A stretch of 64,000 bases of DNA from Escherichia coli O157:H7. GTDB lineage: Bacteria; Pseudomonadota; Gammaproteobacteria; Enterobacterales; Enterobacteriaceae. Every line of letters begins with the position of its first letter. Within the stretch, counting starts at the first letter, position 1. Location of the stretch: assembly GCF_013167455.1 (NCBI RefSeq), contig NZ_CP038328.1; one strand, 5' to 3'. Below, piece by piece: positions 32,346 to 60,136 of the stretch. The notes under the pieces are model-generated. The model had not been told where the DNA came from, made no database searches, and saw only the letters and a list, made by a program, of their open reading frames with translations. A program made the translations under genes and the position numbers.

Positions 32346-32652
32346 TCCCTGAATAGTATAAAAAATGAACGATTACCGCGATCTGTTGAGCGGGTGACAG
32401 TGCACATAGCGTTGTGCTAAAAATATTTTATATATTCACATTAATTATGTGATTTAAATTGCTAAAACTGACAAATATATATTCTAAATAACAACTGGAT
32501 TATTCCTTAGCAATTAATGATTACATTGTAATAAATCATATTCTTTAGCGATTATTTCAGGCAGTGTTGTGCCGAATTAAGCAAGTAGTCAATTCGTTGT
32601 GTATTTATTTATACAATGATTTCGGTGTTCTGGAATTTAATTAGAGGAATCT

Positions 32653-43408: not shown

Positions 43409-43930
43409 ATGGCTATTATTCTCGGCATTGATCCGGGTTCGCGCGTGACCGGCTACGGCGTCATCCGCCAGGTAGGTAGGCAACTGTCCTACCTGGGTAG
43501 CGGATGCATACGCACCAAAGTGGATGATTTACCGTCTCGTCTGAAACTCATCTATGCGGGCGTGACGGAAATCATCACCCAGTTCCAGCCCGATTATTTC
43601 GCCATTGAACAAGTCTTTATGGCAAAGAACGCTGACTCAGCCCTGAAACTGGGCCAGGCGCGCGGCGTGGCGATTGTGGCGGCGGTGAATCAGGAGTTGC
43701 CAGTATTTGAATACGCGGCACGTCAGGTAAAGCAAACGGTGGTAGGTATTGGTAGTGCCGAAAAAAGCCAGGTGCAGCATATGGTCCGCACCTTGCTGAA
43801 ACTGCCCGCTAATCCACAGGCGGATGCCGCCGATGCGCTGGCGATTGCCATCACCCACTGCCACGTTAGTCAGAATGCGATGCAGATGAGCGAATCGCGG
43901 CTGAACCTGGCGAGAGGGCGACTGCGTTAA
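43409..43930 (+). CDS. ruvC: Holliday junction resolvase RuvC
   Basis: 173-aa product [17 protein letters not shown]. Confidence 0.95.
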
Positions 43931-43931
43931 G

Positions 43932-44534
43932 TTATACCGCCTCGGTCAGTTCCGGCTGAGGCGTTTCCACTCCCTCCGCATGAATCAACACCAAACCTGG
44001 ATGATGCCACAAACTGGCTGGCGTGACGGTTTTACGCTCCCACGGAATAGAACCCAGGAACCAGAATTTCCAGAAAGTGAGTTTTGCATTCGGATTGCTA
44101 TTTAACAATTCTCCAAACGTCTCTATTTCACCCACCGGAATACATAGCGCTTCTTTATAAATATCAAAAACAAATTTTGAACAGAACTGGCGCGAAGATT
44201 CGTATTTAAAACCGGTGTGGTAAAGTTTGCGTAGCCGGGAGGGAACCTGTTCAACAATTCGTTGTTTTTGTTGTTCTGTCAGCCCAGCGTCTAATCGCTT
44301 TATAGCATAGCGTTGATTAGACGAACGTTTAATAAAACGAGATAGCGTGGTGATGGTTGAAAGGGGAACCCGGCTTTCTGCAACCAGGAAGTCTTCACCG
44401 TTATGACCGATAATGATCCCGACGTGATTACTCCAGCAATTTGATGCAGCTGATATTTGACCAAATAAGGCAGCACCTATACATGTAAAGACTTTATCTC
44501 CAATTTCATATTCAGCAGGGTAATTAATATTCAC
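43932..44534 (-). CDS. yebB: Uncharacterized protein YebB (probable permuted papain-like amidase, YaeF/YiiX family)
   Basis: The listed 233-aa ORF has a very AT-rich 5' end; trimmed to a 200-aa product from an internal GTG to match the remembered length. Both start and family assignment are uncertain. Confidence 0.7.
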
Positions 44535-44741
44535 GTTGTCATTCCATTGAAATAGATACGAATATACGTAATAGCATAAAAAATTTATTTTTTCAGGAGG
44601 CGCAATGTATATTTTTATTACGCATTTCTTCACTGAATATGTAATATTAAAATATTTACTTCCAATATAACCTGTAGAATAAATTATACTGTGCCATTTT
44701 TCAGTTCATCGAGACACCTCGCAAGTTTTTTTCATCCTTCG

Positions 44742-44757
44742 CTGGATATCTATCCAG
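44742..44757 (+). promoter_or_regulatory. LexA (SOS) box of ruvAB
   Basis: ctggatatctatccag, a palindrome of CTGG-N8-CCAG form (near-consensus CTGT-N8-ACAG) about 50 bp upstream of ruvA. Confidence 0.8.
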
Positions 44758-44808
44758 CATTTTTTTATCATACAGCATTATCTTTGATTCATTACGCAGG
44801 AGCGTCAT

Positions 44809-45420
44809 GTGATAGGCAGACTCAGAGGCATCATCATTGAAAAACAACCCCCGCTGGTGTTAATTGAAGTGGGCGGCGTAGGCTATGAAGTGCATATGCC
44901 GATGACCTGTTTTTATGAACTCCCTGAAGCGGGTCAGGAAGCGATCGTTTTCACCCACTTTGTGGTGCGTGAAGACGCGCAACTGCTGTACGGTTTTAAC
45001 AATAAACAAGAGCGCACGTTGTTCAAAGAGTTGATCAAAACCAACGGCGTCGGCCCGAAGTTGGCGCTGGCGATCCTCTCCGGAATGTCAGCGCAGCAGT
45101 TCGTTAATGCCGTTGAGCGTGAAGAAGTGGGGGCACTGGTGAAACTGCCGGGTATTGGCAAAAAAACCGCCGAACGCTTGATTGTTGAAATGAAAGACCG
45201 ATTTAAAGGTTTGCATGGCGATCTCTTTACGCCAGCCGCCGACCTGGTACTCACGTCTCCTGCCAGCCCGGCGACCGACGATGCTGAACAAGAAGCGGTT
45301 GCCGCGCTGGTGGCGCTGGGCTATAAACCACAAGAAGCAAGCCGCATGGTGAGCAAAATCGCTCGCCCTGACGCCAGCAGTGAAACATTAATTCGCGAAG
45401 CCCTACGCGCCGCGTTATGA
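44809..45420 (+). CDS. ruvA: Holliday junction branch migration protein RuvA
   Basis: GTG start; 203-aa ORF. Confidence 0.95.
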
Positions 45421-60056: not shown

Positions 60057-60101
60057 GTGTCTTTATTGCTGGTGTTGATCTCTCAACCGAAAAGAAATAT
60101 A

Positions 60102-60117
60102 CTGTATAGAATCACAG
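60102..60117 (+). promoter_or_regulatory. LexA (SOS) box of yebG
   Basis: ctgtatagaatcacag matches CTGT-N8-ACAG. Confidence 0.75.
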
Positions 60118-60136
60118 TTATTATGAGAGGCTGCAA

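Follow-up and report, generated by a model that had tools for sequence, protein, structure and literature searches.

Gene order and variation at the locus

The window analysed here is a 64,000-nt stretch of E. coli O157:H7 DNA. In the RefSeq annotation of an identical O157:H7 record and of K-12, ruvC (plus strand) ends at position 43930 and is followed by the yebB CDS (43932..44534, minus strand), which encodes a 200-aa protein of families PF05708 and NF008547 from a GTG start at 44534. Further along lies yobI (44605..44670, plus strand; 21 aa), annotated in RefSeq, known as b4677 in K-12 and assigned to NF038179. The ruvA CDS (44809..45420, plus strand) has a GTG start inside the sequence cATGTGa, and ruvB is the next gene. 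The explanation of the locus that we prefer as a whole, and in which we have good confidence, is the standard E. coli arrangement ruvC / yebB / yobI / ruvAB. All structural features of the locus are already annotated or published. A sequence-only reading of this DNA, which listed yebB, the LexA box and ruvA, had placed the 5' end of yebB directly against the ruvA promoter. The two are in fact separated by the annotated yobI, which is the real coding content of the AT-rich stretch and was missed in that reading.

A 1-kb query covering 43850-44850 matches O157:H7 strains at 100% identity and was found in 5,425 of 5,426 complete E. coli genomes. In the complete E. coli genome NZ_OZ547461.1, an IS1 element is inserted in yebB, so yebB is dispensable in that strain. 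Since its length ranges from 0.27 to 1.8 kb across genera, the yebB-ruvA spacer is an indel hot spot. In E. albertii (L005) and Escherichia sp. E1V33 (L042), the LexA box is parted from yebB by 1.1-1.8 kb of other DNA, and the place of yobI is taken by an ORF for a 228-aa multi-pass protein without a Pfam match (minus strand; positions 1518-2204 of the E. albertii locus and 901-1587 of the E1V33 locus). An Rfam search of 43800-44900 returned no family, the single sub-threshold match being spurious.

At the far end of yebB, ruvC has an intrinsic terminator (43938..43968, plus strand) with a hairpin at 43938-43963 and a 3' end at 43968, a primary 3' end in Term-seq (Adams 2021). The hairpin (-18.2 kcal/mol, z = -4.2) falls inside the last codons of the convergent yebB. 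A bicyclomycin-sensitive (Rho) 3' end is also found antisense to yebB, at 44043.

YebB and its start codon

YebB matches NCBIfam NF008547 (YebB), a whole-protein HMM, with 403-406 bits against a cut-off of 227, and Pfam PF05708 (Peptidase_C92) with 149.7 bits against 27 (E=1e-43). It matches the YebB equivalog model over its full length and has a C92 domain, which places it with the permuted papain-like enzymes YebB, YiiX and YaeF. No feature distinguishes it from the YebB family: it is the reference YebB itself, with 98-100% identity to a 5001-member E. coli cluster. The solved relative is the E. coli paralogue YiiX (PDB 2IF6). Residue 10 of the 200-aa protein is where alignment with both the Pfam C92 domain and the YiiX structure begins, and the N-terminus of the C92 domain coincides with the annotated start.

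The sequence-only reading chose GTG 44534 and left the yebB start unclear. That GTG is the RefSeq start in 14 of 14 E. coli records inspected, and comparative sequence analysis settles the matter in its favour. We used the 233-aa translation that includes the upstream open frame as a query and obtained 255 homologues at E <= 1e-10. Among the best 120 of these 255, coverage of the query never exceeds 87%, and lengths of 190-204 aa predominate. N-termini were then compared in an alignment of 22 sequences from about ten genera, reaching from Escherichia to Providencia, Proteus and Budvicia. The 21 homologues in it (Escherichia, Citrobacter, Salmonella, Klebsiella, Providencia, Proteus, Budvicia and others) have their N-terminal Met in the column of V34, which is GTG 44534, and residues 1-33 of the 233-aa translation find no match in any of them. 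Strong conservation (Y38, E43, G45, D46) sets in right after the V34 column, and C66, H70, H139 and C151 (233-aa numbering), candidates for the catalytic Cys and His of the permuted NlpC/P60 fold, are invariant in all 22 YebB sequences.

The nucleotide sequence around the start agrees with this placement. Across 47 loci from other species, the codon aligned to GTG 44534 is mostly ATG, with a GGA or GGAG core 8-12 nt upstream of it; one of 14 E. coli strains likewise has ATG at 44534. In the window, a weak Shine-Dalgarno-like GGAA (44542..44545, minus strand) lies 8-11 nt upstream of the yebB GTG, with an anti-SD energy of -3.3 kcal/mol, and its GGA core is conserved at the same distance across genera. 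Positions -20 to -1 of yebB are almost invariant in 14 E. coli, the only changes being single-strain ones at -1 and -20. The NF008547 match reaches a few residues (WNDN) upstream of the start; we read this as conservation of ribosome-site nucleotides (aatGGAatGAcaac vs agtGGAgtGAtaaa in Enterobacter sp.) and not of protein. By these comparisons yebB translation almost certainly starts at GTG 44534, the database start. The product is read as a 200-aa cytoplasmic permuted papain-like enzyme, translated from GTG 44534 by way of the weak GGAA ribosome site.

The open frame upstream of yebB

As the sequence-only reading stated, the yebB frame is open for 33 codons above GTG 44534 (44535..44633, minus strand), up to an in-frame GTG at 44633 that is not conserved; the frame remains open to 44705, or 57 codons, before closing. 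The upstream codon had been given as ATG. At 44633-44631 the codon is GTG (CAC on the plus strand). In K-12 (U00096.3) position 44633 corresponds to 1946152, and 44534 to 1946251. The stretch is very AT-rich, as had also been noted: the 99-nt extension has 28% G+C, and 100-nt windows across it have 24-28%, against a mean of 50.5% for the 64-kb window, of which they form the lowest 0.4-1%. The most AT-rich 100 nt of the window lies elsewhere, at 32421-32520 (19% G+C). Chance was assessed with composition-preserving shuffles of the 274-nt upstream region, in which at least 33 codons were open in 4.8% and at least 57 in 0.5%. The openness is thus mildly unusual, and it is unremarkable for one gene picked from about 60.

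YebB might instead, or also, be translated from GTG 44633 as a 233-aa proteoform with an N-terminal extension. This codon does lie inside the 226-nt leader of the sole mapped yebB transcript, described below, and the frame is open there, with a 57-codon openness that just 0.5% of shuffles reach. GTG 44633, however, lacks Shine-Dalgarno pairing (0 kcal/mol), and in 5 of 14 E. coli it is replaced by GCG; four of these five are without any upstream in-frame start. The frame of the extension is closed by in-frame stops 11 codons upstream of the yebB start in E. coli SCPM-O-B-8794 (L004) and 4 codons upstream in both E. albertii and E1V33, and these three loci have no upstream start codon in the yebB frame. 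No homologue or database protein, among the best 120 of 255 or the 21 aligned, carries the extension. Polymorphism in 14 E. coli also argues against translation: within the yebB CDS 70% of it is at third positions, with a synonymous:nonsynonymous ratio of 42:16, whereas in the extension it is spread 2/5/7 over the codon positions with a ratio of 7:7, a pattern without a coding signature. The extension is, moreover, the antisense strand of yobI. A conserved start, a ribosome site and coding-type conservation, the marks of an N-terminally extended proteoform, are all missing here, and we regard translation from GTG 44633 as very improbable.

Initiation at an upstream ATG at 44633 with a functional Shine-Dalgarno sequence had been named as the outcome that would overturn the choice of GTG 44534; at that position there is no ATG, no Shine-Dalgarno sequence and no conservation. 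The impression that the upstream frame does not look like coding sequence was correct, as seen in the missing Shine-Dalgarno sequence, homologue coverage and coding-type polymorphism. The comparisons show the 33-codon frame to be, by its sequence characteristics, non-coding for YebB. It is unlike coding sequence because it consists of promoter and leader DNA and of the antisense strand of yobI. By analogy with exported paralogues, we also considered whether the 33 residues might include a signal peptide or a lipobox. This idea was rejected: by eye the extension has no hydrophobic core or lipobox, and none of the aligned homologues has a leader.

yobI, the gene opposite the extension

The yobI gene runs antisense to the yebB "extension" and has a strong ribosome site, the Shine-Dalgarno sequence AGGAGG (44595..44600, plus strand), 4 nt before the ATG. 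Its anti-SD energy is -10.3 kcal/mol, compared with the -3.3 and 0 kcal/mol at 44534 and 44633. The product matches NF038179 (stress_YobI) over residues 1-21 of 21, with 59.3 bits against a cut-off of 33. YobI belongs to the E. coli small proteins that were first located in 2008 (PMC5821084), and the gene in the window is identical to the known E. coli yobI in its 21-aa sequence, its position and its strong ribosome site.

Of the 14 E. coli sampled, 13 have an intact yobI, with five amino-acid variants. In the remaining strain (L054) its start reads ATA, and PGAP annotates the gene there all the same; the start is also ATA in Escherichia sp. MOD1-EC7003 (L003). The ORF is absent from E. coli SCPM-O-B-8794, E. 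albertii and E1V33, the whole stretch being replaced in the last two by the 1.1-1.8 kb of other DNA. yobI is thus intact only in E. coli proper. Its synonymous:nonsynonymous ratio of 3:7 in 14 E. coli suggests weak constraint, and the gene looks young. We considered whether yobI is a remnant of the 228-aa membrane-protein gene of E. albertii and E1V33. FFTEYVI and LFTQFVI do resemble one another, but blastn similarity is confined to the ruvA-proximal 70-89 bp, and the idea was rejected.

The LexA box and the ruvA promoter

The ruvAB LexA (SOS) box, CTGGATATCTATCCAG, lies exactly where the sequence-only reading located it, at 44742..44757 (no strand assigned), and overlaps the ruvA -35 element. 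It has the palindromic form CTG-N10-CAG with an AT-rich centre. With 16 other published boxes as the basis of a LexA weight matrix and 30 shuffles as background, we scored this box at 19.2 bits, second in the window and above the maximum of the 30 shuffles (18.3). The top LexA-type box of the window is TACTGTATAGAATCACAGTT at 60100-60119 (19.9 bits), which is of the yebG type and one base off the published yebG box. A second SOS box at 44689-44704 (CTGTGCCATTTTTCAG) was rejected, as it scores just 6.4 bits and ranks 19 in the window. For the ruvAB box, the same 25-mer has been given as the SOS motif upstream of ruvA, which is among the UV-induced genes (PMC3009722).

A consensus scan places the ruvA sigma-70 promoter, TGGATA-17-TATCAT, at 44743..44771 (plus strand). 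It fits the mapped ruvA TSSs at 44777 and 44780 (plus strand), which have 13 and 9 reads in Kim et al. 2012, with a 51-mer ending at 44777. Identical ruvAB promoter hexamers were reported in a gSELEX study (PMC3946193). From 44717 to 44808, a segment comprising the LexA box, the promoter and the ruvA leader, 1 site in 92 is polymorphic in 14 E. coli. At the ruvA start itself, cATGTGAta (44807-44812), an ATG-TGA start-stop overlaps the GTG start; ruvA is already among the atGTG genes in PMC9841429.

The LexA box is shared by 16 loci, from Escherichia to Klebsiella and Kluyvera, which differ within it only by C or T at a single central position. These loci represent seven genera and keep the box, the T-run and TATNATA whatever lies upstream. 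This conservation bears on a different role for the same sequence, namely that the LexA-box palindrome and its T7 run (44741-44766) are an intrinsic terminator of yobI that shields ruvAB from yobI read-through. A consensus scan gives a terminator-like match at 44741-44766, where a hairpin of -10.6 kcal/mol (z = -5.1) is followed by U7. Yet the palindrome and the T-run are conserved in species without yobI, LexA binding and the promoter spacer account fully for both, and the Term-seq tables covered here (Adams 2021) list no yobI or ruvA 3' end. We think it improbable that the element terminates yobI transcripts and continue to regard it as a LexA box with its promoter spacer.

A leftward transcript from the ruvA promoter

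In the TSS table of Kim et al. 2012, which covers exponential phase in M9 glucose and requires reads in both replicates, one TSS is assigned to yebB, at 44760 (minus strand; 5 reads, both replicates; its 51-mer maps to 44760-44810). It is the only published TSS assigned to yebB. Its 5 reads, from this single dataset, compare with a mean TSS depth of 108 in the same study; the assignment was made merely because yebB is the next gene downstream, and the -35 region is poor. A yebB-ward transcript from 44760 has a 226-nt leader and is antisense to all of yobI; with the 603-nt CDS it would measure at least about 830 nt.

The leftward -10 element, TATGAT (44767..44772, minus strand), occupies -12 to -7 relative to TSS 44760 and is the reverse complement of the ruvA -10 region. 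It shares the heptamer TATCATA with the ruvA -10, TATCAT (44766-71, plus strand). The typical TSS spacing of bacterial bidirectional promoters is 18 bp; here the opposite-strand TSSs (44760 on the minus strand, 44777 and 44780 on the plus strand) are 17-20 bp apart and the -10 elements overlap, the two features by which such promoters are recognised. The TATNATA symmetry is kept in 16 of 16 loci. In its geometry, ruvA/yebB is like the bidirectional promoters with overlapping symmetrical -10 elements described in the abstracts of Warman et al. (10.1101/2020.01.31.928960) and PMC12825309. No paper in the literature searched links ruvA to bidirectional promoters.

We read the ruvA SOS promoter as one that fires both ways: the TSSs come from published data, while the promoter geometry is taken from the DNA sequence. 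Published RNA polymerase holoenzyme SELEX peaks in the spacers on either side of yobI and an RpoS peak at ruvA<>yebB are in keeping with this reading. RNA polymerase would start rightward at 44777/44780 for ruvAB and also leftward at 44760, 3 nt from the LexA box, passing antisense through yobI and reaching yebB after 226 nt. The predicted fold of the leader RNA (z = -2.1) is too weak to build on. The leftward transcript begins with 5'-AUG (44758-44760, minus strand), which opens a 19-codon ORF. That this is a leaderless ORF translated from the +1 AUG is unlikely, given that its length differs in E. albertii and that the AUG is lost in genera with GCC for GCA.

Possible LexA control of yebB

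Which promoter serves yebB, and whether LexA affects it, had been left unclear by the sequence-only reading. A partial answer is that the sole mapped yebB-ward TSS begins 3 nt from the LexA box. The box occupies +4 to +19 of the yebB-ward RNA, and LexA repression is therefore plausible; LexA bound at 44742-44757 would block both directions. A single SOS box can be common to divergent genes, as at uvrA-ssb. By analogy, the one LexA box between the opposite starts of ruvA and yebB could repress both. Unlike at uvrA-ssb, the leftward product at ruvA/yebB is weak and long-leadered, and both its function and LexA control of it are putative. Expression compendia have led to a prediction that yebB is among the targets of LexA (PMC2689187). 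We lean slightly towards the view that the yebB-ward transcript should be SOS-inducible.

Whether this RNA yields YebB is a separate matter. That the RNA with the 226-nt leader is a productive yebB mRNA seems to us possible, with the balance somewhat against it; alternatively, it could be a by-product whose main effect is to oppose yobI. Its untranslated, AT-rich leader of 226 nt is a likely target for Rho or H-NS, and in the gSELEX table (PMC3946193) the ruvA-yobI spacer carries an HNS flag.

yebB could also be expressed from a second, LexA-independent sigma-70 promoter in the 70-bp yebB-yobI spacer or the 5' end of yobI. TSS 44760 would then be non-productive divergent noise from the symmetrical ruvA -10, and LexA would have no meaningful effect on YebB. 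The gSELEX study found RNA polymerase holoenzyme peaks in both the ruvA-yobI and the yobI-yebB spacers, and for the RpoD holoenzyme peak in the latter its authors proposed the promoter CTGAAA-17-TATTAC (PMC3946193), which lies at 44596-44568 (minus strand) with an expected TSS near 44561. The few reads and the poor -35 of TSS 44760 fit this account. So does the TATNATA symmetry, which is conserved even without yebB close by, as expected of a by-product, and yebB is mentioned neither in the main text nor in the supplements examined of the UV tiling-array paper. The Kim et al. 2012 table, however, has no TSS near 44561, yet contains 44760; the proposed -10, TATTAC, is without the final T; and the expression-compendium analysis put yebB with LexA targets. 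A proximal, LexA-independent promoter is accordingly a serious candidate, to which we would give about one chance in three.

For the leftward arm of the ruvA promoter, a LexA-yebB link, if real, would be specific to E. coli, because 1.1-1.8 kb parts the box from yebB in E. albertii and E1V33. One may picture that, once E. coli proper had lost the DNA that keeps yebB away from ruvA in sister species, yebB and the young yobI came within range of transcription from the symmetrical, LexA-controlled ruvA promoter through its leftward arm. On SOS induction this arm would make a yebB mRNA with a 226-nt leader that doubles as an antisense RNA to the whole of yobI, and DNA damage would act in opposite ways on the papain-like hydrolase and the small membrane protein that the two genes encode. 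We put this scenario forward tentatively and consider it, taken whole, rather unlikely.

Implications

The finding is largely ordinary and comes down to what is already annotated, together with a small gene that was known but had been overlooked. The outcome confirms the database start of yebB and matters little beyond annotation hygiene; it also illustrates how, when sequence alone is read, the strand opposite a gene of 21 codons can pass for an "ambiguous 5' end". Biologically, the one item of some substance is the bidirectional reading of the ruvA SOS promoter, with the LexA box just inside the yebB-ward RNA. If the leftward RNA is functional, the SOS regulon would, in E. coli alone, include yebB, and yobI would gain an SOS-inducible antisense partner.
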